Source: Candidatus Omnitrophota bacterium (lineage in GTDB: Bacteria; Omnitrophota; Omnitrophia; Omnitrophales; Aquincolibacteriaceae). Taken from it: a DNA stretch of 64,000 nt. Every line of letters starts with the position of its first letter. The first letter of the stretch is position 1. A program made the translations under genes and the position numbers. Positions 3 to 37,124 of this stretch are shown piece after piece. Where the stretch lies: assembly GCA_041666865.1 (NCBI GenBank), contig JBAYGD010000006.1, positions 20,390 through 84,389 on the forward strand, written 5' to 3'. The notes beneath the pieces were generated by a model. It was not told where the DNA came from, did no database searches, and saw only the letters and a program-made list of their open reading frames with translations.

Positions 3-266
3 GCGGGTGCGAGTCCCGAAAAGTACGGGGTGACCGTGGATTTCAGCGCCGGAGGACTTGCCTTTCATACGGACGAAAACTACCGGCCGGAGAGCCTGCT
101 TGAAGTCACCGTCGAATTGCCCGCCGAATCCCTTCCGATGAACTGCCTTGCCAAAGTCGTCCGTACGGTACGGGAGGGCTCTTTCTGGCGAGTGGCCGTT
201 TTGTTCATGGACCTCCCGGCGGGAGACCGCGCGCGAATCGATCGCTTCGTCGCCGGGGAGTCTTGA
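3..266 (+). CDS. PilZ-domain protein, C-terminal fragment (5' end lies outside window)
   Basis: Frame is open from the window edge (the track lists it only from an internal Met at 30). DFSAGGLAF matches the PilZ DxSxxG motif. Stop at 264-266. Confidence 0.5.
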   Translation, partial: AGASPEKYGVTVDFSAGGLAFHTDENYRPESLLEVTVELPAESLPMNCLAKVVRTVREGSFWRVAVLFMDLPAGDRARIDRFVAGES

Positions 267-267
267 C

Positions 268-3200
268 ATGACCAGGCCCGGGTATTTCAACGAACCGACA
301 CAGCTCGAGATCCATAAACGAATCGTTCGCTGGGCCTTTTTGATCTCCTTTGCGGTTTTCTGCGTTTTTTTTATCACCACGCTGTCAAGCTGGCGATCTT
401 CCCTCGAGATGCTTCAATCGCGGCAAAAAACCCTCTTCCATGAAATGACGTCCGAGATGGTTTACCGGATGGAGAACGAATTTCATCATAGCGTCGAATT
501 TTTGAGATATATGCAAAACTTTTATTCGGGAAGCGAGGTTGTGAACCGTAGTGAATTCCGTGCTTTTCTGGATACCGACAGCCTGAAATCCAGGTACCCC
601 GGCCTCGTGGCCATCCGGTTTATCGAACGTGTTCCGGACCGCGAGGAGCTCGCTTTCGTGGACTCCGTCAAAAACGACAAAAGCCTTTCGAACGCGGGCT
701 ATCCCGGATTTTCCGTCCAAAGGATCCGCGTGCCCGGGAGTTATTTTTCCTCCCGCAACGAAGCCTATGTCATCAAGTACGTTGAACCGTATATCGGGAA
801 TGAAAAAATGATGGGGCTCGATGTTGCTTCGGACCCGGACCGGCAAAAGCTCTACGACCGGGCCTGGATGAGTGGCGAGGTCTCTTTCGGGCATATCACG
901 GAATGGACGAGCGGAAAGAGCGCTTTCACGATTTGTCTTCCGGTCTACGCCAACGACAAGCCGGCTGGCACCATCCTCGAAAGGCGCGACGCCCTCCGCG
1001 GTTTTCTGGACGTGGTGATTCTCTCGGAGGAATTTTTTCCGGAAATCTTCAAACAGACGACCCTGTTTTCAAAAATCGGATGCGCCATCTACAGCGGAGA
1101 TATTCCGTCGGAAAGCGAGGCTAAACGCGCTCCGGTGTTCGCGAATTTCATCCCCCTGGATCGGCGCGGGGTTCAGAAGAAGCCGGCTTTCGGGACGAGG
1201 CAGATCTTCAAGATTGAAGACAGCTGCTGGACGTTGTTTTTTTATGCCACCGAGGACTTCCGCCGCGCGGAGGTGGGCAGCGAAATGCCGCTCATGATTC
1301 TGATCCAGGGGACCCTGCTGAGTTTTCTCGTCTGGGGGATCCTTTATGTCCTTTCGGTCACCCGGCTGAACGCCGTCTTGATTGCCGACCGGCTGACCTT
1401 CGACGTTCAGGAATCCGAGCAGCGCATCCGGGCTTTGGCGCAGTCCGCGATGGACGCCGTCATCTCCACCGATCAGCGGGAAGACATCATTTTCTGGAAC
1501 CTCGGTGCGCAGAAAGCGTTTGGCTTCACGGAATCGGAAGCGCTCGGGAAACCCCTGAAGATTCTTTTCCCCCCGGGTTCCGGGGTGCGTCCCTGGGGCT
1601 TCAAGCAGCACGTCCGGATGGCGTTCGGGGATTCGGGTGGGAAGGTCATCAGTTTGACCTGCTTGAAGCGGGATGAAAGTGAGTTCCCGGCCGAAATTTC
1701 GATGTCGAGCTGGAAGCGGGGAGCCGATGATTTTCTAACCGTCGTTGTCCGCGACGTCAGCGACCAGGAGAAGATGCGCAACGACCTGAGAGACAGCCGG
1801 GACCGATACGCCACGCTGATCGAAGAGTCGCCGGACCCGATGATTTCGCTCGATGTCTTCGAATCGATTTGCGCGGTGAACTCTGCGGCTGAGGGCATGT
1901 CGGGACGACTCCGGGCCGAGCTGATTGGCCAATCCCTGAAACAAGTCGGTTTTATTATGCCCGAATCCCTGGAGACGCTCCGAAAAGAGTTTGAATGGTC
2001 CGTGTCGGGCCAGACGCGTGTTCCTTTTCCGATCGATGTCCGGCAGAGCGCCAATGCGGTCCGGTCTTACGAGGTGAACCTTCATGTGGTCCGGAGCCGG
2101 GAAAAGATCGATTCCGTTTTGGCGGTTTTTCGCGACATCACGGAGCGCAAAAAAATCGAAAAAATCCAGAACGTTGAACATACGGTTCTCCGGATCCTGG
2201 CGTCGGCTGTCACCGAGGAGGACGGCGCGGCCGGGATCGTCGAATACCTCTGTAAGGCATTTCATTGGGCCGTCGGATCGCTGTGGCTGCTCGACGAACA
2301 AGCCGGGCAGCTTCGGGCGGTTTTTGCTTCGGATGGAGCGTTTGAACCCTACCGGGCTGTTACCCTGCAGCAGGCGTGCGCCAAGGGGGTCGATCTTCCG
2401 GGCCGGGTCTGGGAGGCCCAGGGAAGCGTTTGGATCGAGAACGCCGCTTTGGAGCTCGGGCTCGCCCGGCGTCCGCTCGCTTCGGAGCTTCGCTTACAAA
2501 ATGCGGTTGGCTTTCCCATCTTCAACCAAAATGATTTTATGGGAGTCCTGGAGCTTGTGGGATTCGGGGTGGGGAGGCCAGACGAAGGTTTTTTGAATTT
2601 GTTCGGGATGATTTCCCAGCAGGTCGGGCAGTTCCTGTGGCGCAAGCGGGCGGAGGCCCAGCTGAAGAGGGCGGAGCAAGCGCTCGGGGAGCGCGAGCGT
2701 CTGTCCATGGTGTCGCAGCTTGCGGCGGGGGTGGCCCATGAGGTCAAGAACCCGTTGACGATCATTTTGCAGGGGGCAGAATATCTGCAGCGGGACAAGG
2801 ACCTCAAAGACCCCGTCTCGCTCGAAGTCTTGGATTGTATGAAGCAGGCTGTGGAACGTGCCGATAAGATTGCTAAGGGGTTGGTGGAGCTTTCGAAGCC
2901 CGAATCGGTCAGTTTGCAGTCGGAAGATATTCACGCCGTGATCGAGACCAGTCTTTTGCTGATCAAAAACCGGATCGAGCACTCTGGCGTTCGAATCATC
3001 AAGCAATGGCAGCGCGATCTTCCGAAGGCCGTGATCGACCGCGGCAAGATCGAGCAGGTTTTCATCAACCTCCTGACGAACGCGATCGAGGCCATGGTCT
3101 CGGGGGGAGGCCTGCTGACTGTCCGAACTTGGTCGGAGGGCTCGGCAAAGAAGGGGAGAACCGTCGTGGTCGAGATCGAGGATAGCGGGCCGGGGATTCC

Positions 3201-3408
3201 GGCTCATATCCTTCCCAAGCTTTTTACGCCCTTTGTGACCGGAAAGCGGGCGCAGGGGGGCAGCGGACTCGGGCTCCCGATCGTTAGAAACATTATGGAA
3301 ACGCATAAGGGGAAGGTGGCGATCGAGAATGTCCCGGCCGGGGGAGCGAAAGTGACGCTGGTCTTTCCTTGTGAGCGCGACGCAACCGTCATCGGAGGAA
3401 CTCTATGA
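268..3408 (+). CDS. Multi-sensor histidine kinase (TM, periplasmic CHASE-like domain, TM, 2x PAS, GAF, HisKA, HATPase_c)
   Basis: Track ORF 148..3408, trimmed to the first Met after the PilZ stop (MTRPGYF). Two TM helices flank a ~300-aa periplasmic region with CHASE-like motifs (YVIKYVEPYIGNEKMMGLDV). H-box HEVKNPLTII. G-boxes DSGPGIP and GGSGLGLPIV. Confidence 0.85.
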   Translation: MTRPGYFNEPTQLEIHKRIVRWAFLISFAVFCVFFITTLSSWRSSLEMLQSRQKTLFHEMTSEMVYRMENEFHHSVEFLRYMQNFYSGSEVVNRSEFRAFLDTDSLKSRYPGLVAIRFIERVPDREELAFVDSVKNDKSLSNAGYPGFSVQRIRVPGSYFSSRNEAYVIKYVEPYIGNEKMMGLDVASDPDRQKLYDRAWMSGEVSFGHITEWTSGKSAFTICLPVYANDKPAGTILERRDALRGFLDVVILSEEFFPEIFKQTTLFSKIGCAIYSGDIPSESEAKRAPVFANFIPLDRRGVQKKPAFGTRQIFKIEDSCWTLFFYATEDFRRAEVGSEMPLMILIQGTLLSFLVWGILYVLSVTRLNAVLIADRLTFDVQESEQRIRALAQSAMDAVISTDQREDIIFWNLGAQKAFGFTESEALGKPLKILFPPGSGVRPWGFKQHVRMAFGDSGGKVISLTCLKRDESEFPAEISMSSWKRGADDFLTVVVRDVSDQEKMRNDLRDSRDRYATLIEESPDPMISLDVFESICAVNSAAEGMSGRLRAELIGQSLKQVGFIMPESLETLRKEFEWSVSGQTRVPFPIDVRQSANAVRSYEVNLHVVRSREKIDSVLAVFRDITERKKIEKIQNVEHTVLRILASAVTEEDGAAGIVEYLCKAFHWAVGSLWLLDEQAGQLRAVFASDGAFEPYRAVTLQQACAKGVDLPGRVWEAQGSVWIENAALELGLARRPLASELRLQNAVGFPIFNQNDFMGVLELVGFGVGRPDEGFLNLFGMISQQVGQFLWRKRAEAQLKRAEQALGERERLSMVSQLAAGVAHEVKNPLTIILQGAEYLQRDKDLKDPVSLEVLDCMKQAVERADKIAKGLVELSKPESVSLQSEDIHAVIETSLLLIKNRIEHSGVRIIKQWQRDLPKAVIDRGKIEQVFINLLTNAIEAMVSGGGLLTVRTWSEGSAKKGRTVVVEIEDSGPGIPAHILPKLFTPFVTGKRAQGGSGLGLPIVRNIMETHKGKVAIENVPAGGAKVTLVFPCERDATVIGGTL

Positions 3409-3779
3409 GCCATAAAATCATGCTTGTTGACGACGAAATCGACTGTCTGAGAATGATGAAATTGAATCTGGAAGCGGTCGGGGGCTATCATGTCCAGGTC
3501 GAGAGCCGGGCCGTCAAGGCACTCGAGACCGCCAGGACCTTCAAGCCCGATTTGATTTTCCTCGATCTCGTGATGCCCGAGATGGACGGTTCGGATGTGG
3601 CCTGTGCGCTCAAGGCGGACCCGCAGCTGGCCAAGATTCCGGTTGTTTTTCTGACCGCAACCGTGACCGAATCGGAAGTCTCCCAAACCGGACAGCGGAT
3701 CGGCGGCCAAGTATTTCTCGCAAAGCCCGTGACCGTCAAACAATTGACCGACTGCATTCAACAAATCCTGGGTGAGTAA
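3405..3779 (+). CDS. Stand-alone response regulator receiver (CheY-like, no output domain)
   Basis: 124 aa. IMLVDDE...DLIFLDLVMPEMDG...LAKPV receiver signature. ATGA overlap with the kinase stop. Confidence 0.9.
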   Translation: MSHKIMLVDDEIDCLRMMKLNLEAVGGYHVQVESRAVKALETARTFKPDLIFLDLVMPEMDGSDVACALKADPQLAKIPVVFLTATVTESEVSQTGQRIGGQVFLAKPVTVKQLTDCIQQILGE

Positions 3780-3784
3780 AAGCG

Positions 3785-5050
3785 ATGCCAAATTATCAAT
3801 ACCGGGCTAAAGACGGCCGCGGGAAAACCGTCGATGGGTTGATGGAAGCGGCCAGTGAGGGAGAAGCCGTCGAAAAAGTCAACCGGCTTGGGCTTCTTCC
3901 GGTCCGAGTCGAACTGACGGCGGCACCCGTCAAGCCCGAGCCGGTGCAGAAAAGCGAAACCGAAGAAAAGGCTCCGGCCCGCCCCGTTGCGCGCAAAGCG
4001 CCCGCGAAGGGCGGTCCGATCAAGAGCAAGGAGATCACGGCGTTTGGCAGACAGCTCTCGAGCCTGATCCGCTCGGGGGTCCCTATTCTCAAGGCCATCG
4101 GCATCATCAGTCAGCAGTCCGACAGCGCGGCGTTCAAAAAAATGCTCGATCAAATCTACGAGGACGTCAAAAACGGCGCTCCTTTTTCGGCGTCCCTCGG
4201 GAAGTTTCCCGGTTTATTCCCCCCTCTTTATACCGCGCTCGTTGCGGCCGGAGAATCCACCGGGAACCTGGATCAGTCTCTTCTGAGGGTCACCGAATAC
4301 AGGCAAAAACAGGAGGACATCGTTTCCCGCGTCCGGGCGGCCCTGATCTACCCGATGCTGATGGGCATCACGGGGCTCGGGACCATTATTTTCATGCTCA
4401 CTTTTGTCATGCCCAGGCTTTTGGGCATCTTTGCGCGCCTTGGGGGCGAGTTGCCCCTGCCGACGAGGATTCTGATCGGGACAAGCGATGCGCTCAGGCA
4501 GCCCTGGATCTGGGTTGGCGTCGCGGCGGCCGTTTTGGCCGGTGTGGTCTTGAGCCGTCAGAAAAATGAAAAGCACGCTCTGGCCCTGAGTCTTTTTGTT
4601 TTGGGGATCCCGCTTCTCGGGGACTTCGCCCTGAAAATAGAAATTGCGCGCTTTACGCGGACCATGGAGCTTTTGATCAAAAGCGGCATCTCCGTTCTTG
4701 CGGCGATCCGCACCACGGCGCCCGTGATCGCGAACCTGGTCCTGCGCAACGACCTCCTGAAGTGCCTGCAGGATATCAGCGAGGGCGGCTCGTTCGGCAG
4801 AAGCCTCCGGAGGTCGAAGCGTTTTCCGAGTTTCATGATCAATCTGATCAGCGTTGGTGAAGAATCGGGCAAGCTCGATGAATCGCTCGGAGAAATCGCG
4901 AATTTTTACGAGCGTGAAACCGACGAGGCGGTGCGCATTCTGACCTCGCTCCTGGAGCCTTTGATGATCCTCGGGATGGGCCTGGTGGTCGGCTTCATCG
5001 TTGTGGCGATGCTGCTTCCCATGTTCGAAATCAACATGATGGTGAAATAA
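3785..5050 (+). CDS. gspF: Type II secretion / type IV pilus platform protein GspF/PilC family
   Basis: 421 aa with two T2SSF repeats (LSSLIRSGVPILKAI ... LLIKSGISVLAAI) and three TM segments. Starts 5 nt after the receiver stop. Confidence 0.85.
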   Translation: MPNYQYRAKDGRGKTVDGLMEAASEGEAVEKVNRLGLLPVRVELTAAPVKPEPVQKSETEEKAPARPVARKAPAKGGPIKSKEITAFGRQLSSLIRSGVPILKAIGIISQQSDSAAFKKMLDQIYEDVKNGAPFSASLGKFPGLFPPLYTALVAAGESTGNLDQSLLRVTEYRQKQEDIVSRVRAALIYPMLMGITGLGTIIFMLTFVMPRLLGIFARLGGELPLPTRILIGTSDALRQPWIWVGVAAAVLAGVVLSRQKNEKHALALSLFVLGIPLLGDFALKIEIARFTRTMELLIKSGISVLAAIRTTAPVIANLVLRNDLLKCLQDISEGGSFGRSLRRSKRFPSFMINLISVGEESGKLDESLGEIANFYERETDEAVRILTSLLEPLMILGMGLVVGFIVVAMLLPMFEINMMVK

Positions 5051-5061
5051 ACGGACCGGCG

Positions 5062-5859
5062 ATGCTGAAACGATTGTTCCTCCAAGGGGCTTGTTTGGGG
5101 ATGGTGCTGGGTATTTTTTTAGGGGCGAAGGGAAGTCCTCCGACCTGGGAAGAATTGAAAGGCGACCATTTTATCGTCTATTACACCGGCGCGGGTGACT
5201 TTGCGAAGGACGTCCTGCGAAAGGCGGAGGAATGTTATTCCCGGGTCGGTGAAGATCTCGGATACGCTCGGCATTCGAAATTTTGGCAATGGGAAAAACG
5301 GGTTAAGATCTACATTTACAAAACCCACGAGGATTTCGTTCGCGGGACGGGCCGGCAGAAATGGTCGCACGGGTATGCCGATTATCATGCCAAAAAGATC
5401 TTCAGCTATGAGTGGAAAGAAGGATTTCTGGACGCCCTGTTGCCTCATGAAATTACGCATCTGATTTTCCGGGATTACGTCGGGTTCCGGGGCGAAGTTC
5501 CGGTTTGGCTCGACGAGGGGGTTGCGCAGTGGCAGGAGCCCGCCAAGCGGGGGGCTGTCCGGCAGCTCATGAAGTTTTATTTTTATGATGAAAAGGGGTA
5601 TTCGCTGAAAAACCTGACCGAGATCGACGTTCAGAACGTCAGAACGAAACTTGCCGTGGATCTTTTTTACACTCAGTCGGCCTCGGTCATCGATTTTCTG
5701 GTGACCAAGTACGGGGGCGACCGTTTTGTCGACTTTTGCCGTCAACTGCGGGACGGGAAAAAAATGGACGAGGCCCTGCCTTTCGCCTATCCGCTGCAGA
5801 TCCGCAATCTCAACGAACTGGAGGAGCAATGGAAACAGTACATTTTAAGCGCACCGTAA
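5062..5859 (+). CDS. Predicted zinc metallopeptidase, Peptidase_MA-like (HExxH ... E), signal/TM N-terminus
   Basis: HEITHLIF followed by WLDEGVAQWQE gives the gluzincin HExxH plus downstream Glu ligand. Hydrophobic N-terminus. Lies between gspF and gspG. Confidence 0.6.
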   Translation: MLKRLFLQGACLGMVLGIFLGAKGSPPTWEELKGDHFIVYYTGAGDFAKDVLRKAEECYSRVGEDLGYARHSKFWQWEKRVKIYIYKTHEDFVRGTGRQKWSHGYADYHAKKIFSYEWKEGFLDALLPHEITHLIFRDYVGFRGEVPVWLDEGVAQWQEPAKRGAVRQLMKFYFYDEKGYSLKNLTEIDVQNVRTKLAVDLFYTQSASVIDFLVTKYGGDRFVDFCRQLRDGKKMDEALPFAYPLQIRNLNELEEQWKQYILSAP

Positions 5860-11061: not shown

Positions 11062-11433
11062 ATGAAAAACGTACAGGGACTCATTCTCATCCTGTTTTGT
11101 GTTTGTCTTTTTCCCTGTCAGCCGGCGGCGCGCGGGCAAGTTCAGGAGAAGGACGTGGAGCCTGCCGACATCGTCGAGAGCAAACCGGACGCAACGGATC
11201 CCGTCTATCTCCTGGTCACGACCAGGGACCGGCAGCATTTCCGGATCCCCAAGGACATGCAGTTGAAGAAAAAGGGGAATGTCTACTTTTTCGAGCCGAT
11301 GGAAAGCTACGTTTTCAAGCGGACGGTCGAGATGAAGGACGATGTCGACGCGATCAAGAAGCGGCTTGCCCTCATTGAGGAACGGCTCGGGATTATGCCG
11401 GAACAGGAAGATACGGACGCTAAAGCGGTTTGA
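11062..11433 (+). CDS. Small secreted hypothetical protein
   Basis: Track ORF 11032..11433 trimmed to MKNVQGLILILFCVCLF (signal peptide). GGAAGGGG RBS upstream. 123 aa. Confidence 0.5.
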   Translation: MKNVQGLILILFCVCLFPCQPAARGQVQEKDVEPADIVESKPDATDPVYLLVTTRDRQHFRIPKDMQLKKKGNVYFFEPMESYVFKRTVEMKDDVDAIKKRLALIEERLGIMPEQEDTDAKAV

Positions 11434-12937
11434 CGGCAGCGGCCGGGGCCGCCTGGTGAACCGGGATCTCAAAAATGAAACGTGCTCCTTTTCCTTCCTC
11501 GCTTTCCACCCACACCCGCCCGTGGTGCAGTTCCACGATTTCTTTGACGATCGAAAGCCCGAGGCCCGTGCCGCTAATTCCCTGAAGGCTGGGTGTGTCG
11601 AGCTGCACGAATTTCTCGAAGATCCTCGCGCAGTCTTTCTTGGCGATCCCGGGCCCCGTGTCCCGGATGCCGATGCGGACCGTTTTGGCTTGCGGGATCG
11701 CTTTGGCATCGATCGTGACCTTGCCTCCTTCTGGGGTGAACTTCAGGGCATTGCCGACCAGATTCGTCAGGACCTGCCCGATCCTGTCCTGATCCGCTTC
11801 GATCTCGAGAGGCTCCGGGAGGTCGAGCTCGATCGTCACTCCCTTGCTTTTGCCCCAGGCCGTAAATTCATGCGACAGGGAGCCGATGAATTCGTCGAGA
11901 CGGAACGGCGCCAAGCGGATCGAAAACTGCTTGGCCTCCAGCTTGGAGAGGTCCAGGAGGTCGTTGATCAGACGGGTCAGCCGGTTGATGTTATTGAGGG
12001 CGATGGTGGCGAACTTTTCCTGCTGGGGATTGAGCGCGCCGTTCGAGGGGTCGGCCAAAAGCCGCAGCGATCCCTGGATGCAGACCATCGGGGTCCTCAG
12101 GTCATGGGAAATATTGGAGAGGAAAGTCGATTTGAGCTGATCCAGCTCTTTTTGCTTGGTGACGTCGGAAAGCACCGAAACGAAGCCGACCGTTTTCCCG
12201 TCTTCGCTCTCGATGACGGCGTTGCTTGCGCGCAGGACCTTTTTGGTTTGGTCGCTCTGGCTCTGGATGACGATCTCTTTCTCTTTTCTGTCTCCGGCCT
12301 CCTGGGACAAGCTGATCAACTGCTCTTCCTTGAGATCGCTCATGATCGACTTGCCGATTTTGTCGTTTTTATTCACGCCGAGCAGTCTTTCGGCGGCGGG
12401 GTTCATGAGAATGACCTCGCCCTTCTTATTGACCATGATGACGCCCTCGGCCATGGAGCGGACGACCTCTTCGGTTTGCTTCTTCTCTTCCCCGAGCTCC
12501 TTGAAATTTGTGTCCAGCTTTTGATACTGTTCGCTGACGCTCTTGAACTGTTTTTCCACGAAGGCGATGGATTTTTCCTTTTCATCGAGCATGTGGCTGT
12601 AACGCGTGCTGATCTCCTCGGCCTTCACCTGGAGTTTTTTTTCCACTTCCTGCTCGATCGTGTGGCTGATCTTCTGCTTGAGGGCGCTGATCTGATGGGA
12701 GGGGCCGTGGAGGTATTTTTCGAGCTCGCCTTCGAGGGTGGGGGCGGGGGCACTCTCAAACTGTATTTTGGCGGCTTTTTGCTCGGCGGCGTGGCGTTTG
12801 GCGGCGTTATGGGCCAAGATGATTCCTGAACCCACCGCAAGAAGGATGATGACGAGAAAGCCTAGGACGACAGGTTCCAAAAAACCCCCTTTCCGCTCTC
12901 TTTTTTTGTTCTTTGGGACAAATCGCCTATTTGACAT
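11420..12937 (-). CDS. Sensor histidine kinase (TM, coiled coil, PAS, HisKA, HATPase_c)
   Basis: N-terminal TM helix. PAS region (MAEGVIMVNKKGEVILMNPAAERLLG). H-box SHDLRTP. G-boxes DTGPGI and GTGLGLSIVKEIV. Confidence 0.85.
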   Translation of the reverse strand: MSNRRFVPKNKKRERKGGFLEPVVLGFLVIILLAVGSGIILAHNAAKRHAAEQKAAKIQFESAPAPTLEGELEKYLHGPSHQISALKQKISHTIEQEVEKKLQVKAEEISTRYSHMLDEKEKSIAFVEKQFKSVSEQYQKLDTNFKELGEEKKQTEEVVRSMAEGVIMVNKKGEVILMNPAAERLLGVNKNDKIGKSIMSDLKEEQLISLSQEAGDRKEKEIVIQSQSDQTKKVLRASNAVIESEDGKTVGFVSVLSDVTKQKELDQLKSTFLSNISHDLRTPMVCIQGSLRLLADPSNGALNPQQEKFATIALNNINRLTRLINDLLDLSKLEAKQFSIRLAPFRLDEFIGSLSHEFTAWGKSKGVTIELDLPEPLEIEADQDRIGQVLTNLVGNALKFTPEGGKVTIDAKAIPQAKTVRIGIRDTGPGIAKKDCARIFEKFVQLDTPSLQGISGTGLGLSIVKEIVELHHGRVWVESEEGKGARFIFEIPVHQAAPAAAVKPL

Positions 12938-12940
12938 AGA

Positions 12941-12966
12941 GCACTTAAGGTAAATACTTTAAGTGC
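12941..12966. promoter_or_regulatory. Perfect 8-bp inverted repeat GCACTTAA-N10-TTAAGTGC in the divergent intergenic region, candidate operator
   Basis: Read directly in the 71-bp gap between the kinase start (12937, minus strand) and the HTH gene start (13009). A TATTAT -10-like hexamer lies at 12975-12980. Confidence 0.45.
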
Positions 12967-13008
12967 CGTAATTGTATTATAACAGAAATCCTTCGGAAGG
13001 GAAAAGCG

Positions 13009-13263
13009 ATGAATACCATGACGGCCGAGGTTTTGAGCGCGCAGGAAATTTGCGAAAAACTCGATATTCCGTATTCCAAAATCAATTATTACACGTACCT
13101 TGGTTTTTTCGAAATCGCCCGGAAGGTCGGCAATAAGCGGTTCTACGACGGCGAACAGGTGGAAAGCCGGTTCCGAGCGATCTCGCGGCTCATGAACGAG
13201 GGCTATCCGCTCTCGCTCATCCGCAAGAAACTGATCGGGGGGCGCGGCGATGGGCTACTATAA
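13009..13263 (+). CDS. Small MerR-family HTH DNA-binding protein without effector domain (BldC/excisionase-like)
   Basis: 84 aa. LSAQEICEKLDIPYSKINYYTYLGF matches the MerR-type [18 protein letters not shown]. Overlaps the downstream gene by 14 nt. Confidence 0.6.
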   Translation: MNTMTAEVLSAQEICEKLDIPYSKINYYTYLGFFEIARKVGNKRFYDGEQVESRFRAISRLMNEGYPLSLIRKKLIGGRGDGLL

Positions 13264-14113
13264 GGTTCTCGGTTTCCAGAAAGAGCCGTTTTCGACAAGC
13301 CCCGACCCCGATTTCTTTTACCTCTCAAAGGCGCATGATGCGGCCCTGACCAATATCCTGATCGAATTGCGGCTCAAGCGCGGTTTGGCCGTCATTTTAG
13401 GGGACGTCGGGACCGGCAAGACGACACTTTCCAGGAAGCTCATTCAGGAACTGAAAAGCCGCGAAGACTGCCTTTTCCACATGATTCTCGACCCTTCCTT
13501 CGACGATCCGCTCCTCTTGTTGAGCTATATCTCCAAGAACTTCGGGATCCCAGTGGGCCCGAACGCCTCGATTTTGTCGCTTCGGGAATCGCTCGAGCAA
13601 TTCCTCTTCGAAAAGGCCGTCGTCGAGGGTAAGACCGTGGCCCTGATCGTCGACGAGGCCCAGAAGCTGAGCGACTCCTCGCTCGAGAATCTCCGGGTCC
13701 TGCTGAACTATGAGACCAACGAGTTCAAAATGCTGCAGCTTGTCCTGCTCGGACAGCTGGAACTTCAGTCCAAGATCAAGGAGATCGCTAATTTCTTTGA
13801 CCGGATCAGCTACAAAGGCAAACTCGAAGCGCTGGACTTTTCCGAAATGAAAGAAATGATCTTTTTCCGGATCCGCCGGGCGGGTTATGACTCCGACATG
13901 AACCTTTTTCTGGACGAGGCTCTGCATGGGATCCATGAATCGACGGGCGGCCATCCCCGGCAGGTGACCATGCTTTGCCATCGGGCTCTGAAGTCTTTAT
14001 TGCTCAAGAACAAACTCGTCGTGGATTCGCAGATCATCGAAGAGTTGATAGAAGAGGATGCGAGGACGGGATGGCAGAGAACGAGCCTCTTACTCCAGAA
14101 AAACAGCTATTAA
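13250..14113 (+). CDS. GspA/ExeA-like AAA+ ATPase (type II secretion accessory)
   Basis: Walker A GDVGTGKTTL and Walker B IVDEAQ. ExeA/MshM family architecture. No C-terminal peptidoglycan-binding domain. Confidence 0.7.
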   Translation: MGYYKVLGFQKEPFSTSPDPDFFYLSKAHDAALTNILIELRLKRGLAVILGDVGTGKTTLSRKLIQELKSREDCLFHMILDPSFDDPLLLLSYISKNFGIPVGPNASILSLRESLEQFLFEKAVVEGKTVALIVDEAQKLSDSSLENLRVLLNYETNEFKMLQLVLLGQLELQSKIKEIANFFDRISYKGKLEALDFSEMKEMIFFRIRRAGYDSDMNLFLDEALHGIHESTGGHPRQVTMLCHRALKSLLLKNKLVVDSQIIEELIEEDARTGWQRTSLLLQKNSY

Positions 14114-14775
14114 AGCTCATTGAAAATCCGAAGCAAGCCTCCGTTAGGGCCGCAAGCGTCAAACGGGAGGGAAGGAAATGGTTTTCCCTCGGCGCGTTCA
14201 AAGGACGCCTGGATTTTTGGAAGAGTTTTTCGGTCCGAAAGCCGGCCGTGCAGAAAAGGACGGGAAAGGAAGCCAACCGCATCCGGCGGCTGAACGCGGT
14301 CCTTTGGGTCCTGCTCATTTTCATGGCGGGTTACACGGCCTACAGCCTTTGGGACATGACGACGGGGATCCGGAAGGCATCGAACCTCATTCTGAACCCG
14401 GACCGGAGCGTCGCGGAACCGAAGGAGCCGGAGATCCGGCTGCAAGACGTGGCTTTTTACCTGGAGAAGATCCGGAGTCGAAATATTTTCAATGCCGCGC
14501 CCCCGGAAGCGAAACCGGAGAGGAAAAAAGAGGACGGAGAGCCCGTGACGGACGAGAAGCCGCTCCAGGCCCAAGACGACGAAGCGACCAAGAATTTTTC
14601 GCTGGTGGGGATTGCGTGGTCGGACGATCCGGAAGCGATGATCGAAGACAAGGCGGCAAGCCGGACCCTCTTCGTAAGGCGCGGCCAGTCGCTTCCCAAC
14701 GGCGTGCGGGTGGTGACGATTTTCAAGGAAAAAATCATTTTGAGTTATAAAGGCAAGGAATTCGAACTCAGTTAA
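14071..14775 (+). CDS. GspB/GspC-like bitopic protein (cytoplasmic N-terminus, TM, Lys/Glu-rich linker, C-terminal secretin-binding HR-like domain; no PDZ)
   Basis: Track ORF trimmed to MAENEP (RBS GAGGACGGG). TM segment LNAVLWVLLIFMAGYTAYSLW. C-terminus FSLVGIAW...GVRVVTIFKEKIILSYKGKEFEL fits the GspC HR / PilP pattern. Confidence 0.55.
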   Translation: MAENEPLTPEKQLLKLIENPKQASVRAASVKREGRKWFSLGAFKGRLDFWKSFSVRKPAVQKRTGKEANRIRRLNAVLWVLLIFMAGYTAYSLWDMTTGIRKASNLILNPDRSVAEPKEPEIRLQDVAFYLEKIRSRNIFNAAPPEAKPERKKEDGEPVTDEKPLQAQDDEATKNFSLVGIAWSDDPEAMIEDKAASRTLFVRRGQSLPNGVRVVTIFKEKIILSYKGKEFELS

Positions 14776-14794: not shown

Positions 14795-16597
14795 ATGAAA
14801 CGGCTCGGCCGGAGTGCGATCAAGGGTGCGTGGGTGACGCTTCTCGCCGTCTGCCTCAGCCTCGGGGGCGTGAGCGGTTTTGCGGCTGATGAACCGGCGC
14901 CTGACGGAAACGCCGAAGGCCAGGGGGATGGAGCGATTCAGCCGCCGGATCTGAGCGACGAAACGCCCGTCAAGGAGATCGATGTGACCGAAGGCCGGAT
15001 CTCGTTGGACCTGCGCAACATCGAGGTCTCCGAGGCCCTCCGTTTTCTGGCGACCCGCGGCAAGCTTAACCTTGTGATCAGCAAGACCGTTGCGGGACGG
15101 ATTTTTCTTGTTTTGAACAATGTTCCCGTCATGGACGCCTTCGACATCATCCTCCTCAGCAATGCTCTCGCCTACGATAAACAAGGTGAGATCTACCAGA
15201 TCATGACGGACCAGGAATACAAAACGAAGTACGGCAGGGATTTTTCGGACCCCCGGACGGTCCGCATCTACCGGCTCCAATACGCCCTGCCGGAGCGCGT
15301 TTTTGCCGCGGTCGAGGCCCTCAAGAGCGAAATCGGCCGCGTTCTCGTGGACCAGGAATCCGGAACCGTGTTCGTCATGGACACAGCGGAGAAGATCGCC
15401 GAGATCGACAAGGTCGTCGACATCCTCGAGCAGAAAAGGATCGTCCGGGCTTTTCCGCTCCAGTACGCGAAAGTCAAAGACATCGAAGACCGGCTGAAGG
15501 CCCAGCTGGATAGTAAGGGCGTCGGCACGGTTCAGTCCGACGAACGAACCAATCAGCTGATCGTGCAGACCTACCCGGAGCGCCTCAAGCAAATCGAAGA
15601 GCTCATCGCTTCGCTGGACAAAAAAACGAAGGAAGTCCTCATCGTCTCCAAGATCATTCGTGTGACGCTTGCCGATGATTTTCATGCCGAAATCAAGTGG
15701 GAAGGCATGTTCCAAGGGCTGCTCCGTGACGGGAGTTTTATCGGCAACCACGAGCTCGATCCCGTGAACCGGGGGCTGATCGGGCAAAGCTATCTCGACG
15801 ATTACTATAAAGTGGACATTGACAAGACGGAACGGATGATCGCGGGCCCCAAGAGCACGCTTTTGGAAAACCTGGTCATCGGCCAAAAGCTCGACGACAA
15901 GACGTTTGAAACGCTGATCAACTTTTTGCGGACGATCGGCGAGACGCGGGTGCTGGCAAGCCCGAGGATCATGGTGGTCAATAACCAGGAAGCCAAGATC
16001 CACGTCGGCGAACGCCAGGCGTATATTACGAGCACGACCACGACCGGAAGTTCGACGGCGACCACCGCCGAAGAAGTCAACTTCATCGACGTCGGGATCG
16101 AGCTTGCCGTCACGCCGACGATCAACGACAACGGTTACGTCAGCATGAAGATCAAGCCGGTCATTTCGACCGTCAAAGAGTTTTTGCAAACAGCCTCGGG
16201 CAACAAGATTCCGATCGTGGACACTTCTGAAGCCGAGACCAGCGTCATGGTCAAGGACGGGACGACGATCGTGATCGCGGGACTTCGCCGGGACGAGTGG
16301 CAGATCAACGACGATCAGGTTCCCTTTTTGGGGGACGTGCCGATCCTCGGCCGGCTTTTTAAATCGAATTCTAAAAGCAAAAGACGGACCGAGGTCCTAG
16401 TGATCCTTACGCCGACCATCACGGGCGGCGAAAAGTTCGACATGGGCGAGCCGACCTCCCTTGACTATGATATGAAGAGCTACCGGGAGTATTCGGACCT
16501 CAAGCTGGAAGGGGAAAAGCCTGAGGCCGTCCCGCCGGGCCAACCCGGATTTTTCAACCGCGTTCTCAAAAAGATGCACGTTCCTGCCCATGATTAG
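14795..16597 (+). CDS. gspD: Secretin (GspD/PilQ family)
   Basis: Signal peptide, N0/N1-like domains and a C-terminal secretin domain (VLASPRIMVVNNQEAKIHVG ... VPFLGDVPILGRLF ... VLVILTPTI). Confidence 0.85.
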   Translation: MKRLGRSAIKGAWVTLLAVCLSLGGVSGFAADEPAPDGNAEGQGDGAIQPPDLSDETPVKEIDVTEGRISLDLRNIEVSEALRFLATRGKLNLVISKTVAGRIFLVLNNVPVMDAFDIILLSNALAYDKQGEIYQIMTDQEYKTKYGRDFSDPRTVRIYRLQYALPERVFAAVEALKSEIGRVLVDQESGTVFVMDTAEKIAEIDKVVDILEQKRIVRAFPLQYAKVKDIEDRLKAQLDSKGVGTVQSDERTNQLIVQTYPERLKQIEELIASLDKKTKEVLIVSKIIRVTLADDFHAEIKWEGMFQGLLRDGSFIGNHELDPVNRGLIGQSYLDDYYKVDIDKTERMIAGPKSTLLENLVIGQKLDDKTFETLINFLRTIGETRVLASPRIMVVNNQEAKIHVGERQAYITSTTTTGSSTATTAEEVNFIDVGIELAVTPTINDNGYVSMKIKPVISTVKEFLQTASGNKIPIVDTSEAETSVMVKDGTTIVIAGLRRDEWQINDDQVPFLGDVPILGRLFKSNSKSKRRTEVLVILTPTITGGEKFDMGEPTSLDYDMKSYREYSDLKLEGEKPEAVPPGQPGFFNRVLKKMHVPAHD

Positions 16598-17561
16598 ATT
16601 CCTTCTCTTTCTCAAACGCCGGGCTTGGCCGATCGCTTTTTCGATCCTGCTGTGTGGGGCGGTCCTTCTCGGGACTCTTTTCTACTGGTTTCCGTTTCAG
16701 GGGGCAAAAGCGCACTCGGTCATGATGGAGCACAAGGTCAGCAAGCTCAAAGAGGAGAGGGAGAGCCTTCAGAAGTTCTACGAAACCCTGAAACAGAAAT
16801 TCCAGGAGCTTGAGGCGGACCGCGACAACGTGCTCGTGCAGACCCGGCAGCTCCTCGGCGAGCGCGAAAAGTACGAGCAGTCCGTGGTCGAGCTCAATGC
16901 GGTGAAGGAAAAACAAAAAACGCTCACCGAAACGAATGCGGTTGTGACCGAGAAAATGACGGCTGCGGAAACGAAGGTCGCGGAGCTGCAGTCGAGCTAC
17001 GACGCTGCCCGGGCCGAGGCCGAATCCTCAAAGGCCAAGCTTGAGCGAACGACCCGCGAGAACGTCGAACTGGCCACGCGGTCTCAAAACACCGAAGCGG
17101 TCATCAATCAATATAAGCAAAAGGCGGAAGAAAACGAAAAATACAGCCCTCTTTTCAACTCCCTGAGCGTGGAGCACGAAGTGCTCAAGGAAAAATACAA
17201 GGCGCTCGAAGCGCGGCTCGGGGACATCCCCGGACAATTCTCTGAAATGGCCAAGGAAAACCAGGTTTTGATCCACGAGACGGCCGACATGCATTACAAT
17301 TTGGGGGTTTTTTACGCCAAGGAAAGGAATTATGAGCGCGCCCTCAAGGAGTTCCAGAAGGCCGTGGATATTGATCCGGGAGACGCCAAGGCCCATTATA
17401 ATCTCGGCTATATCTATGCCGACCACATGCAGGACAGGGCCCGGGCCGAGCTTCACTTCAAGACGTTCCTAGAGCTGGCCCCGGATGACCCCAACTCGGA
17501 CGCCGTCCGGAACTACATTATCAGCCGGGATGTTTTTAGCGCAAAAGTGTTGAAATCCTGA
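16590..17561 (+). CDS. Membrane-anchored coiled-coil plus TPR protein
   Basis: N-terminal TM segment, ~200 aa of heptad-rich coiled coil, and C-terminal TPRs (HYNLGVFYAKERNYERALKEFQKAVDIDP...). Overlaps the secretin stop by 8 nt. Confidence 0.6.
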   Translation: MIRFLLFLKRRAWPIAFSILLCGAVLLGTLFYWFPFQGAKAHSVMMEHKVSKLKEERESLQKFYETLKQKFQELEADRDNVLVQTRQLLGEREKYEQSVVELNAVKEKQKTLTETNAVVTEKMTAAETKVAELQSSYDAARAEAESSKAKLERTTRENVELATRSQNTEAVINQYKQKAEENEKYSPLFNSLSVEHEVLKEKYKALEARLGDIPGQFSEMAKENQVLIHETADMHYNLGVFYAKERNYERALKEFQKAVDIDPGDAKAHYNLGYIYADHMQDRARAELHFKTFLELAPDDPNSDAVRNYIISRDVFSAKVLKS

Positions 17562-28820: not shown

Positions 28821-29249
28821 ATGACAAGCGAACAAGCAACCATGGAATCCAAACCGGTCTCCGAGAAACTTCAGGGGGTCATCAAGACGATCGAGGAGCT
28901 GTCGGTCCTAGAACTTGCCGAGCTCGTAAAGGCCCTGGAAGAGAAGTTCGGGGTCAGCGCTGCGGCGGCGGTTGCCGTGGCGGCACCTGCAGGCGGCGGC
29001 GCGGCAGGCGGCGGCGCAGCGGCGGCGGTCGAAGAAAAGACGGCCTTTGACGTGATTCTTACCAGTGCCGGCGACAAGAAGATCCAGGTGATCAAGGAAA
29101 TCCGCACGGTCACGAGCCTCGGTCTCAAGGAAGCCAAAGACCTCGTCGAAGGCGCGCCCAAGAAAGTGAAGGAAGGCGTGACGAAGGAAGAAGCCGAGAA
29201 GATCAAGAAGCTACTTGAAGATCAGGGCGCGAAGGTCGAGATCAAGTAA
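28821..29249 (+). CDS. rplL: 50S ribosomal protein L7/L12
   Basis: Track ORF trimmed to MTSEQ... (RBS AGGAAAGGAAA). [18 protein letters not shown], an Ala/Gly hinge and a C-terminal domain. A start at 28842 is also possible. Confidence 0.9.
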
Positions 29250-29286
29250 TAAAATCCACTGTACGGAACCTGGGGGCAGAATCCTT

Positions 29287-33080
<3,794 letters not shown>

Positions 33081-33084
<4 letters not shown>

Positions 33085-36000
33085 CTTACGACGTCAATAC
33101 CTTTGATTCGGTCACGATCCAAATCGCATCGCCCGAGGTGATCCGGAAATGGTCGCACGGCGAGGTCAAGAAGCCCGAGACCATCAACTACCGGACGCTC
33201 AAACCGGAAAAGGACGGCCTTTTCTGCGAGCGGATTTTCGGGCCGACCCGCGATTGGGAATGTAACTGCGGCAAGTACAAGCGCATTAAGCACAAGGGGA
33301 TCGTCTGCGACCGCTGCGGCGTCGAGGTGACTCAGTCGAAGGTGCGCCGCGAGCGCATGGGGCACATCGAACTCGTGACGCCCGTCTCGCACATCTGGTT
33401 TTTTAAGACGATGCCTTCGAGGATCGGGAACCTGCTCGACCTGAGCGCGCGTTCGCTCGAGAAAGTTCTTTATTACGAAGAGTACATCGTCATTGACCCG
33501 AAGGAGACGCCGCTCAAGGCGCGCCAGCTCCTGACGGAAGAGGAATACAACAAGGCCCAGGAGCAGTACGGGGCGACGAATTTTATAGCCAAGATGGGCG
33601 CCGAAGCCGTCCGGGACCTCTTGCACGCGATCGAGCTCGACAAGCTTGTTTCTAAATATTCCCGCCAGGTCAAGGCCTCGAAGTCCAAGCAGGCCCGCGC
33701 TCGCGCGATCAAGATTCTGAAGATCGTCGACGCCTTCAAGAAGTCCGGAAATAACCCGGAGTGGATGATCCTCGAGGTCATCCCGGTGATTCCGCCCGAC
33801 CTGAGGCCACTCGTGGCCCTCGACGGCGGACGCTTTGCGACGAGCGATCTGAACGACTTGTACCGGCGCGTCATCAACCGCAACAACCGCCTGCGCAAGC
33901 TGCTCGAACTCAAGGCCCCCGACGTGATTATCCGCAACGAGAAGCGCATGCTGCAAGAAGCGGTCGACGCGCTTTTCGACAACGGCCGCCACGGCCGTCC
34001 GGTGCTCGGAGCCGGGAACCGTCCGCTCAAGTCCTTGAGCGACATGCTCAAGGGCAAACAGGGCCGTTTCCGCCAGAACCTTCTGGGCAAGCGCGTGGAT
34101 TATTCCGGCCGCTCTGTCATCGTCATCGGCCCTGAGCTGAAGCTCCACCAGTGCGGTCTTCCGAAGAAGATGGCTCTGGAGCTTTTCGAACCGTTTATTA
34201 TCCGCAAGCTCAAAGAGCGCGGGCACGTGCACACGATCCGTTCCGCCAAGAAAATGGTTGAACGCGTCAAGCCGGAAGTCTGGGACATTCTCGAAGAAGT
34301 CATTCGCGAGCATCCGGTGCTTCTCAACCGCGCTCCGACGCTGCACCGCCTCGGCATCCAGGCTTTTGAGCCGGTGCTGATCGAAGGCAAAGCGATCCGA
34401 ATCCACCCGCTGGTCTGTACGGCATTCAACGCCGACTTCGACGGGGACCAGATGGCGGTCCACGTTCCTCTTTCGATGGAAGCCCAGATGGAAGCGCGGC
34501 TGATCATGCTTTCGGCCAACAACATTTTTTCGCCCGCCAGCGGCCAACCGATTACGTCGCCGACGCAGGATATCGTACTGGGCGTTTACTACCTGACGAA
34601 GATCCGCGATGGCGCCAAGGGGCAGGGCCTGATTTTCTACGGCCCGGAGGAAGCGATCCTTGCCCACCAGGACGGAGAGATCCATAAGCACGCGCGCTGC
34701 AAGCTTCGCCTGGAATCCGGTGAGCTCGTGGAGACGACGGTCGGCCGGATCATTTTCAATGAGACCCTGCCGAAGGGGTTCCGCTACGTGAACGACTCGA
34801 TTTCCAAGGCCCGTCTTTCGAAGATTATCGCGGAAGTCTTCCGCAAGTTCGGCCATACGGTGACGATCCAGCTTCTGGACCGGCTCAAAAACCTTGGATT
34901 CGAAGAGGCCACGCTCGCCGGCGTTTCGATCGGGATCGACGACATTCAAATCCCAGCGAACAAGGGCAAGCTCCTCGACGAGGCCAAGAACAGCGTTAAG
35001 GCCATCGAAGCGCAATACAAAAACGGTCTGATCACCGAAGGCGAGCGCTACAACAAGGTGATCGACATCTGGACGCATATCACGGACCGCGTTTCCGATA
35101 GCATGTTTGAATCACTCGAGTCCTTCAATCCGGTCTTCATGATGGCTGATTCCGGCGCCCGCGGTTCGAAACAGCAGATCCGTCAGCTGGCCGGCATGCG
35201 CGGTCTGATGGCCAAGCCGTCGGGAGAAATCATCGAGAGCCCGATCACTTCGAACTTCCGCGAAGGCCTGACCGTGCTCGAGTATTTCATTTCGACGCAC
35301 GGAGCCCGCAAGGGGTTGGCCGATACGGCCTTGAAGACGGCTGACTCCGGATACCTGACGCGTCGGCTTGTCGACGTGGCCCAGGACGTCATTGTTTATG
35401 AAGAGGACTGCGGGACCCTGAACGGAGTTTTCATCGAGCCCATGTACGAGGGCGAGGACATGATCGTGTCCTTGAAAGACAGGATCCTCGGCCGCGTCGC
35501 TCTCGACAACGTTGTCGACATCGTGACCGACCAGAAGATCGTGCAGTCCGGCGAAGTCATCGAAGAGGCCACGGCCGACCGGCTCGAAGAGATCGGGATC
35601 GAAAAAATCCGTGTCCGCTCGGTTTTGACCTGCGAGGCAAAACGCGGGATTTGCGCCAAGTGCTACGGGCGCGATCTGGCCACGCGCCGCCTGGTGGAAC
35701 TCGGGTGCGCCGTTGGAATCATCGCGGCCCAATCCATCGGAGAGCCGGGCACGCAGCTGACGATGAGGACGTTCCACATCGGCGGAACCGCCTCCCGCGT
35801 CGTCGAGCAGTCGTATTTCCGCTCAAAAAACGAAGGGCAACTGAAGTACCACAGCCTCAAGACCGTTGTCACGAAAAACGGCGAAATCATTGTGCTGAAC
35901 CGCAACGGCCAGCTGTCAGTTCACGATCCGTCGGGCCGGGAACTCGAACGCTATACGATACCGTCGGGGGCGATTATCAGCTACAAAGAAAACGAAAAAG

Positions 36001-37124
36001 TCGCCAAAGACGAAATCTTCGTCAAGTGGGACCCCTATACGGTTCCGATCCTTACCGAAATGTCCGGGAAAGTGCAGTTTGAAGACGTCGTTGCCGGCGT
36101 TTCGATGAACGAGGAGCTTGACGGGACGACGGGGATGACTGAACGCGTCATCATCGAGCACAAAGAGGACCTGCATCCCCAGATCTTGATTGTCGGAGCC
36201 AACGAAGAAATCCTCGCGTTCTATCCCATTCCGACGGCGGCCCATATCGTGGTCAAGGAGGGTCAGGACATTTCGAGCGGTACGCTTCTGGCCAAGACGC
36301 CGCGCAAAATCGCCAAGACGCGCGACATCACGGGCGGACTTCCGCGCGTGGCGGAGCTCTTCGAGGCGCGCAAGCCGAAGAATCCGGCCATCATCTCCGA
36401 GATTGACGGCGTGGTCGAAATCGGCGATATCGTCAAGGGCCTTCGCAAGATTATCGTGCGCAGCACAACCGGTATGACCAAAGAGTATGGGGTCCCGCAC
36501 GGCAAGCATCTGAACGTGTACACGGGCGATCGCGTGCTGGCCGGCGAGCAGCTCATCGACGGGCCTGTCGTTCCCCAAGACATTTTGCGTGTTTCCGGAG
36601 AGCGCAGCCTCCAGGAGTATCTCGTCAACGAAGTGCAGGAGGTCTACCGTCTGCAGGGCGTGCGATTGAACGACAAGCACGTCGAGGTGATCGTCAGGCA
36701 GATGCTCCGCAAGATCCGAATCGAAGAGTCCGGCGACACCGAATTTCTGGTCGGCTCCCACATTGATAAGGGACGGTTTGCCGACGAAAACGATAAAATG
36801 ATCAAAAAAGGTAAAGAGCCTGCGAAGGCGACGCCGATTTTGCTCGGCATCACCAAGGCCTCTCTGACGACCGAAAGCTTTATCTCGGCCGCGAGCTTTC
36901 AGGAGACGACCCGCGTGCTGACTGAGGCGGCCTCTGCGAGCAAGCGAGACAATCTGCAGGGTCTCAAGGAAAACGTCATCATGGGGCATCTGATCCCGGC
37001 GGGAACGGGTTATCTGGGGCACCATGATTTCCAGCTCGTCAAGGAACTCGGCGATCTTCTGCCCGATCCGACGGCCGCTAAGGCAGTCGGCGAAACCGCA
37101 GGCGCCGCACAGGAGAAAAAATAA
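33081..37124 (+). CDS. rpoC: DNA-directed RNA polymerase subunit beta'
   Basis: Zinc-binding CNCGKYKR...[17 protein letters not shown] catalytic motif. ATGA overlap with rpoB. Confidence 0.97.

Follow-up and report, generated by a model that had tools for sequence, protein, structure and literature searches.

A minimal MerR-like protein and a conserved inverted repeat at the head of a secretin operon in Omnitrophota

In a 64,000-nucleotide stretch of genomic DNA from a Candidatus Omnitrophota bacterium (in the following termed the window), a type II secretion cluster includes an operon for its outer-membrane module, and this operon is led by a small gene coding for a protein of 84 residues. 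By family assignment and predicted fold, this protein is a minimal winged helix-turn-helix (wHTH) DNA-binding protein of the MerR family, and its gene is preceded by an inverted repeat which constitutes the best conserved intergenic part in 21 distinct related loci. From this arrangement we infer the binding of the repeat by the 84-residue protein, its dimeric stoichiometry and the sign of the regulation: it appears reasonably likely that the protein occupies the repeat, a putative dyad operator, in two copies and controls the operon, and the mode of control would probably be repressive and take the form of negative autoregulation. The features of the region are collected in Table 1.

Table 1. 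Genes and putative control elements at the head of the secretin operon (window coordinates).
Feature	Position	Strand	Remarks
PAS-HisKA-HATPase sensor kinase	11420..12880	-	probable start TTG 12880; longest ORF extends to ATG 12937
Best sigma-70-like candidate, TTGACA (12931-36)-16 bp-AATACT (12953-58)	12931..12958	+	10/12 in a standard scan
Putative operator dyad, GCACTTAAGGTA-AA-TACTTTAAGTGC	12941..12966	.	26 bp; 12-nt arms, 2-nt centre, one G:T mismatch
Most conserved intergenic block, CTTAAGGTA-NN-TACTyTAAGTGCCGTAA	12944..12971	+	includes the asymmetric 3' extension CCGTAA
TATTAT, weak -10 candidate	12975..12980	+	8/12 with best -35 (TAAATA); not conserved in orthologs
Shine-Dalgarno-like GGAAGGGA	12995..13002	+	6 nt upstream of the MerR-like ATG; orthologs have GAGGGGA at the same place
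MerR-like gene	13009..13263	+	ATG 13009, TAA 13263; 84 aa, HTH-only
ExeA/GspA/MshM-like AAA_22 ATPase	13250..14113	+	287 aa, ATPase domain only
GspB/GspC-like membrane protein	14071..14775	+	Pfam T2SSC and T2SSB; frame and start by comparison with L001 and L007
Secretin, GspD/PilQ-type	14795..16597	+	600 aa; Pfam Secretin and Secretin_N; NCBIfam PilQ/GspD below cutoffs
Coiled-coil and TPR protein	16590..17561	+	part of the same conserved secretin unit
Conserved protein of 250 aa	17618..18370	+	without match to any family; final gene of the secretin unit

The original prediction that the helix-turn-helix gene heads a gspA-gspB/C-gspD unit is borne out by the comparison of orthologous loci, where a kinase gene on the minus strand followed by MerR-like, ExeA-like, GspB/C-like, secretin and TPR genes is found in this order in 17 of the 21 loci, as far as the respective contigs reach. 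As had equally been described, the stop codon of the MerR-like gene (TAA 13263) overlaps the start of the ExeA-like gene (ATG 13250) by 14 nt. The encoded ATPase is 62-88% identical in the orthologous loci, with the overlap again amounting to 14 nt or, in few cases, to 4 nt, and neither a transmembrane nor a peptidoglycan-binding part was found in the protein in Pfam and NCBIfam searches. The GspB/C-like gene starts at ATG 14071 (MAENEPLTPEKQLL...) and shares its first 43 nt with the end of exeA, and two ORFs that had been called mechanically for this gene (13975-14775 and 14178-14750) are misleading. The 250-residue protein at the end of the unit recurs with 51-60% identity in L001, L003, L004 and L010, four of the orthologous loci. 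In the locus L012, the secretin gene directly follows the MerR-like gene with no ATPase gene in between. Upstream of the secretin unit and on the same strand, the window contains gspF, gspG, gspJ, gspK, gspL-like and gspM-like genes, which are separated from it by an antisense TPR gene, a small plus-strand gene and the antisense PAS histidine kinase. A Peptidase_MA_2 gene (5062-5859, plus strand) located between gspF and gspG could code for a secreted or processing protease tied to the secretion system; a CHASE-PAS-GAF histidine kinase of 1086 residues (148-3408) precedes gspF, and no gspE ATPase gene was seen adjoining gspF within positions 148-5050. Downstream of the unit lies a housekeeping block (24727-59292) that includes tuf and ribosomal protein L1 followed by further large unannotated ORFs, with two large ORFs at 29215-37124 being suggested as rpoB and rpoC from their size and position alone. 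This block supports a chromosomal, non-mobile setting.

On its other side, the MerR-like gene is flanked by the kinase gene, which is oriented divergently in 17 of the 21 distinct loci; no match to the kinase was found in the available sequence of L011 and L012, and in L013 and L025 the upstream sequence is too short to judge its presence. The intergenic region had originally been described as a divergent spacer of 71 bp, with the palindrome placed 4 nt from the start codon of the kinase. Both values assume initiation at ATG 12937, a codon that the orthologs do not use, and the proximity of palindrome and start codon is an artefact of choosing the longest ORF. The orthologous kinases begin with the sequence M-D/E-P-I/V-V just before a membrane helix, which corresponds to TTG 12880 in the window. 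This codon is preceded by a strong Shine-Dalgarno sequence (GGAAAGGGGG) and its equivalent was picked by gene callers in L001. As judged from this comparison, the kinase probably starts at TTG 12880, which would leave a spacer of 128 bp to the MerR-like gene, and the 19 N-terminal residues of the long kinase ORF are probably not translated.

In Pfam, residues 11-75 of the 84-residue protein match the family MerR_1 (PF13411) with 36.3 bits compared to a gathering cutoff of 21.6, and the same family is present in all 20 of 20 homologs with E <= 1e-14. No MerR-type family other than MerR_1 is listed in the Pfam scan and no model of NCBIfam matched the protein, which is 100% identical to an entry from a Candidatus Omnitrophota MAG that is named MerR family transcriptional regulator by NCBI. 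The AF2 model of the protein (pLDDT 84.7) starts with a strand (residues 8-10) and two helices (11-18 and 22-30), followed by two strands that form the wing (36-40 and 43-47) and by two further helices (48-63 and 68-79), and it thus displays the MerR wHTH topology with helices 1 and 2, a two-stranded wing and helices 3 and 4. The chain stops five residues past helix 4 in a disordered tail (residues 79-84, pLDDT < 50), and neither a fifth helix or coiled-coil nor an effector domain is found in the model or by Pfam. The description as HTH-only MerR-family protein of 84 residues is thus upheld by the ORF, the MerR_1 match and a predicted structure devoid of a further domain. Among homologs, the N-terminal residues 1-8 are variable, and the disordered C-terminal tail (GGNGHELL) is conserved beyond the gene overlap. 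In Foldseek searches against the PDB, the top match of the model is the complex of GlnR with DNA (4r4e, TM 0.65-0.71), and further matches include CbpM, MtaN, BrlR, SoxR, CadR, NmlR and TnrA (4r22, TM 0.72). The TM-scores to MerR-family domains range from 0.62 to 0.72, with the DNA-binding domains of GlnR/TnrA, MtaN (1r8d) and SoxR (2zhg), which are the best structural matches and are all bound to DNA in the respective entries, aligning over 67-82 columns at values of 0.65-0.72. GlnR is also the best match of the protein among PDB sequences. Chains of BldC, by comparison, align over only 47-63 columns with TM-scores normalised to the query of 0.44-0.47. An identity as excisionase or Xis-type protein was rejected: the respective family HTH_17 (PF12728) scores at 17.4 bits compared to a cutoff of 27 and is thus sub-threshold in Pfam, the setting is a conserved chromosomal type II secretion cluster and a PHROG match is weak (E = 0.0023).

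The inverted repeat upstream of the gene had been reported as perfect palindrome of the form GCACTTAA-N10-TTAAGTGC. Such an element is indeed present at 12941-12966, where it is the sole match in the 64-kb window even if three mismatches are permitted (0.08 expected), and the half-site CTTARRGTA is within the 64 kb confined to this dyad. The description as perfect does not extend to the full dyad, whose arms were found with a repeat tool to extend to 12 nt with 92% complementarity and which has a 12-2-12 organization with one mismatch. Its 3' edge is located 42 nt from the start codon of the MerR-like gene, and the same tool detected no direct repeat in the spacer upstream of this gene. For this genome, the search for additional operators covered about 64 kb, and for each related locus 1-12 kb. 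A generic repeat, whose widespread occurrence had been named as the observation that would speak against an operator, is ruled out by the presence of a single copy in the 64-kb window, one copy per orthologous locus and the absence of the motif in 2.9 million viral contigs. Between the dyad and the gene, a small hairpin (CCUUCGGAAGG, 12990-13002) extends into the Shine-Dalgarno sequence of the latter; it is found in this genome only and is not conserved in orthologs.

The 21 distinct related loci, nearly all of them labelled Omnitrophota, were obtained from protein searches and two collection scans. Each contains one copy of the dyad motif, always on the same strand and 14-48 nt upstream of the first in-frame ATG of the MerR-like gene, with a consensus of aGCACTTAAGGTA-nT-TACTyTAAGTGCCGTAA. 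When 18 loci were aligned with MAFFT, the mean column conservation of the dyad block (12941-12971) was 0.88-0.93, compared to 0.42-0.62 in the alignable rest of the spacer and 0.58-0.77 in the MerR-like coding sequence. We regard this conservation as the strongest argument for a functional element, and the proposal that the palindrome is a specific element agrees with its behaviour across the loci, which is as expected of an operator. A simple symmetric dimer site does not account for two properties of the block, namely the near-universal asymmetry of G9 opposite T18 (12949/12958) and the non-symmetric extension CCGTAA (12966-12971), which is conserved 3' of the right arm. In relatives whose MerR-like proteins are 38-47% identical, both arms of the dyad have changed together, as found in L025 (41% identity, TTGCAGTA-AA-TACTGCAA) and in L029 (ACTTAAAGTA-TT-TACTTCATGT), with the latter sharing the form TTAAAGTA-NN-TACTTCAT with L011 (40-47% identity).

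A conserved dyad could also serve as site for another regulator, such as a response-regulator partner of the divergent kinase, which would make the MerR-like protein a passenger or leave it with other targets. Inverted repeats are bound by many regulators and the divergent arrangement with a PAS histidine kinase in most loci would be in line with such a role. Against it, the position of the dyad is fixed to the MerR-like gene, whereas its distance to the kinase gene varies between about 60 and 260 bp. The dyad is kept in L011 and L012, where no kinase was found in the available sequence, and in L032, where the upstream neighbour is co-directional and no divergent gene adjoins; its divergence parallels that of the MerR-like protein and there is no response-regulator gene adjoining it in the window. 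As far as can be judged from these loci, the dyad tracks the MerR-like gene and not the kinase and, since it stays with the former while the distance to the latter varies, we consider a site for the response regulator of the kinase, or for any other regulator, to be unlikely.

The relationship of the dyad to the promoter of the operon is variable. A TATTAT promoter with a -35 region overlapping the palindrome, as initially proposed, reaches only 8/12 and is not conserved, and the scan prefers the TTGACA-16-AATACT candidate, whose spacer and -10 hexamer overlap the left arm and the centre of the dyad. The latter candidate is not conserved in close orthologs either. No recognisable sigma-70 promoter was detected in the closest clade, and none is shared at a fixed position across the loci, with the predicted promoters being located at -30 to +12 relative to the dyad. 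In L011, L012 and L025, a strong promoter is found immediately upstream of the dyad, and in L029 (169-198) and L032 (159-188) a near-consensus TTGACT/TAGTAT promoter has the related dyad at the centre of its 18-bp spacer. Wherever a core promoter is predictable, the dyad overlaps or abuts it in a geometry that is not fixed. Such variable geometry is tolerated more readily by a repressor than by an activator, and the absence of an effector domain in conjunction with the overlap between dyad and predictable core promoters makes promoter occlusion the most likely mode of control.

In the mechanism that we propose, two copies of the 84-residue protein would bind the 26-bp dyad at 12941-12966 and thereby control their own operon, which would encompass the MerR-like, ExeA-like, GspB/C-like, secretin, TPR and 250-residue protein genes. 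Negative autoregulation through promoter occlusion would hold the output of the secretin module steady, and translational coupling via the 14-nt overlap would tie the output of the regulator to that of the ExeA-like ATPase. The original prediction of local transcriptional control of secretin production is in this respect strengthened by the conserved operator-like dyad at the head of the operon, whereas the regulation itself is, as before, only inferred. In addition to the asymmetry of the block, two observations count against the model. The predicted structure offers no coiled-coil of the kind by which classical MerR proteins dimerise and the N-terminus is not conserved, which leaves no evident means for two copies to cooperate on a palindrome, and the lack of a consistent promoter in the closest clade leaves the geometry between operator and promoter in the window uncertain.

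Alternatively, the conserved block might itself be the promoter. It could be recognized by an alternative sigma factor, with CTTAAGG as -35-like and CCGTAA as -10-like element and the symmetry being secondary, or it could constitute a MerR-type activation promoter with an over-long spacer that is remodelled by the regulator. This would explain why conservation runs asymmetrically into CCGTAA and why a sigma-70 promoter is not detectable in the closest clade; the pattern TTAAGG-18 bp-TAAnnn is legible in most loci, and the dyad in L029 and L032 occupies the centre of an 18-bp spacer, in the manner of MerR-type promoters. A promoter would, however, require neither the conservation of the whole spacer nor symmetric arms, and the hexamers fit no consensus known to us. 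Activation by spacer remodelling is further disfavoured by a protein without effector domain or coiled-coil for an allosteric switch and by the scatter of predicted promoters from -30 to +12 around the dyad, a variation that activators tolerate poorly. Neither in the window nor in the close clade could a promoter be recognised whose spacer of 19-20 bp surrounds the dyad. On balance, we find it improbable that the block is primarily a promoter. Readings of the block as sigma-54, sigma-28 or ECF promoter or as NarL 7-2-7 site, which were compared by eye with consensus sequences, did not fit in spacing or orientation, and no claim is based on them.

The palindrome could also act in the transcript, where it would form an 11-bp hairpin in the 5' leader that stabilises the mRNA or modulates its translation while the MerR-like protein acts elsewhere. 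The sole mismatch of the dyad would become a G.U pair on the plus strand, several changes at outer positions are compatible with wobble pairing, and a folding energy of -18.8 kcal/mol (z = -2.4) was calculated for the region. The predicted sigma-70 promoters upstream of the dyad in L011, L012 and L025 would include it in the transcript, and it lies at a fairly constant distance from the start codon. Yet, if the 11-bp hairpin is scored in 21 sequences, 84.8% of the cells pair compared to 82.6% in column shuffles, and the covariation score of 0.143 is not above that of shuffled alignments (0.132), with 127 out of 500 shuffles scoring as high. The variation within the dyad is mostly one-sided, and a change of T19 to C that recurs in several loci would place an A.C mismatch beside the G.U pair. 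The sequence is kept where a stem would allow for change, a centre of two nucleotides would make the stem open and the dyad in L029 and L032 is located between -35 and -10 elements and would thus not be transcribed as a whole. Rfam contains no match to the dyad region. Since it is sequence and not base pairing that is conserved, a DNA operator is favoured over an RNA hairpin; a known RNA family is rejected given the lack of both a covariation signal and an Rfam match, and a role of the palindrome as RNA appears quite unlikely.

The association with secretin genes is not restricted to close orthologs. A profile search of 1.84 billion representatives identified 178 proteins at E <= 0.001, including 74 at E <= 1e-10, with the 178 family representatives being clustered at 50% identity. 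Most of the 171 of these 178 representatives that are listed contain about 70-126 residues, and the family shares the pattern Y-x-T-x-N-x-YT...GN-x-R-x-Y...EGYPL-x-LIR. Among the listed relatives, of which about 55 sequences were inspected, no fusion of the MerR-like domain to an ExeA-like protein was found. At identities of 31-40% and above, the sampled members lie at the head of secretin or pilus-assembly operons. In the locus of P0041 (31% identity), the MerR-like gene is followed by genes for an AAA_22 protein, a 225-residue protein and a secretin, with the ATPase gene being 72 nt away and a different dyad (TGGTAGATA-N5-TATCTATCA, L028 12-34) located about 30 nt upstream of the ATG. In the locus of P0187 (40% identity), the MerR-like gene overlaps a gene for a ParA/MinD-like ATPase, which is followed by PilM, PilN, PilO-like and secretin genes, and the same order is found for P0189 (38% identity) as far as its contig reaches, the final gene being cut by the contig end. 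This arrangement characterises a sister clade of the small protein (38-40% identity) that comprises L029 and L032, with the secretin gene seen in L029. In outer members, P0191 is located in a CheW/PilZ chemosensory cluster (L030 5001-5240) and P0139 in a phage-like region with primase, DnaB and a SNF2 helicase overlapping the small gene (L031 5001-5237); P0193 is a partial protein match only with an uninformative neighbourhood. The link to secretin operons thus holds for the core of the family and fades in its outer members.

With respect to characterized proteins, the closest working analogy is provided by the Bacillus regulators GlnR and TnrA (4r4e, 4r22 and 7tea), which like the 84-residue protein consist of a MerR-like wHTH of about 80-110 residues without coiled-coil and with a disordered C-terminal tail, and which form dimers on DNA at palindromic sites (PMC5859096). 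The proteins share only about 20-25% identity, and GlnR and TnrA dimerise via a conserved N-terminal extension, whereas the N-terminal residues of the 84-residue protein are variable. The context differs as well, with a secretin operon and a 12-2-12 dyad found here and no sign of nitrogen metabolism among the annotated genes of the window. GlnR and TnrA have glutamine synthetase, which is bound by their C-terminal tail, as partner and recognise sites of the sequence TGTNA-N7-TNACA. The originally proposed BldC-type is not supported by the comparison. BldC from Streptomyces (6ama, 6amk), the founding member of its family, is similarly a small MerR-related protein without coiled-coil or effector domain, but it has 68 residues and assembles as head-to-tail multimers on direct repeats with the sequence AATTXXXX(C) within a large developmental regulon (PMC5859096), in contrast to the single inverted repeat adjoining its own gene in the present case. 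Since GlnR and TnrA bind palindromes and BldC direct repeats, and since BldC also aligns over a shorter stretch with lower TM, we favour the former as analogy. Classical MerR activators such as MerR, SoxR, CueR, BmrR and MtaN share the DNA-binding fold and a dyad operator of about 20-26 bp, which in L029 and L032 is found in the classical arrangement between -35 and -10, but they contain a fifth-helix coiled-coil and an effector-binding domain, neither of which is present in the 84-residue protein.

A different precedent is provided by CbpM (3ucs), a small MerR-fold protein of the Pfam family MerR_2 that is encoded in the operon of its target CbpA and acts by protein-protein contact. Following this example, or that of glutamine synthetase with GlnR/TnrA, the 84-residue protein could chiefly be a modulator of the co-translated P-loop ATPase, with DNA binding being secondary or absent, as might be suspected from the conservation of the 14- or 4-nt overlap, which involves an ExeA-like ATPase in one clade but a ParA-like one elsewhere, from the CbpM-CbpA J-domain complex among the top fold matches and from the conservation of the C-terminal tail past the overlap; we regard this as very unlikely, given that the ATPase is missing in L012 and its gene 72 nt away in P0041, that the Pfam match is to MerR_1 and to no other MerR-type family, and that the conserved dyad, which CbpM does not require and which here points to DNA binding, would be left without explanation. 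The operon itself resembles the ExeA-ExeB (GspA-GspB) systems of Aeromonas and Vibrio and the MshM system of the MSHA pilus, which equally combine an AAA_22 ATPase, a GspB/C-like protein and a secretin, whereas the ATPase of 287 residues lacks their transmembrane and peptidoglycan-binding part. An HTH gene heading ExeA-ExeB or MshM operons is not known to us and was not found in the literature searched, which also contained nothing relevant that would connect a MerR-type gene with secretins, ExeA, MshM or Omnitrophota, and neither Pfam nor NCBIfam holds a curated family for the protein beyond the generic MerR_1.

Returning to the operator model, the two proteins encoded by the overlapping genes might, by analogy to known partners, form a checkpoint in which the co-translated P-loop ATPase, ExeA-like here and ParA-like in the sister clade, switches the pairing of the HTH protein on the dyad. 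This extension is a long shot. If true, the assembly state of the secretin machinery would be read out by the transcription of its module, in a manner comparable to the switching of GlnR/TnrA by glutamine synthetase, which would establish a previously undescribed feedback from the assembly of an outer-membrane channel to gene expression, and such control of DNA binding by an ATPase would raise the interest of the system considerably. As large channels of the outer membrane, secretins are toxic if mis-assembled or over-made and, to our knowledge, little is known about their control in uncultured, small-celled phyla such as Omnitrophota. The MerR-like protein plausibly represents an uncharacterised but fairly ordinary local regulator, a MerR relative that lacks the coiled-coil, is accompanied by a palindromic site and is dedicated to secretin operons. 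It would as such add a third behaviour to those of coiled-coil-less MerR relatives, the use of a palindromic site without the dimerisation segment of GlnR/TnrA, and the 84-residue protein together with its 26-bp site offers a compact and directly testable pair.
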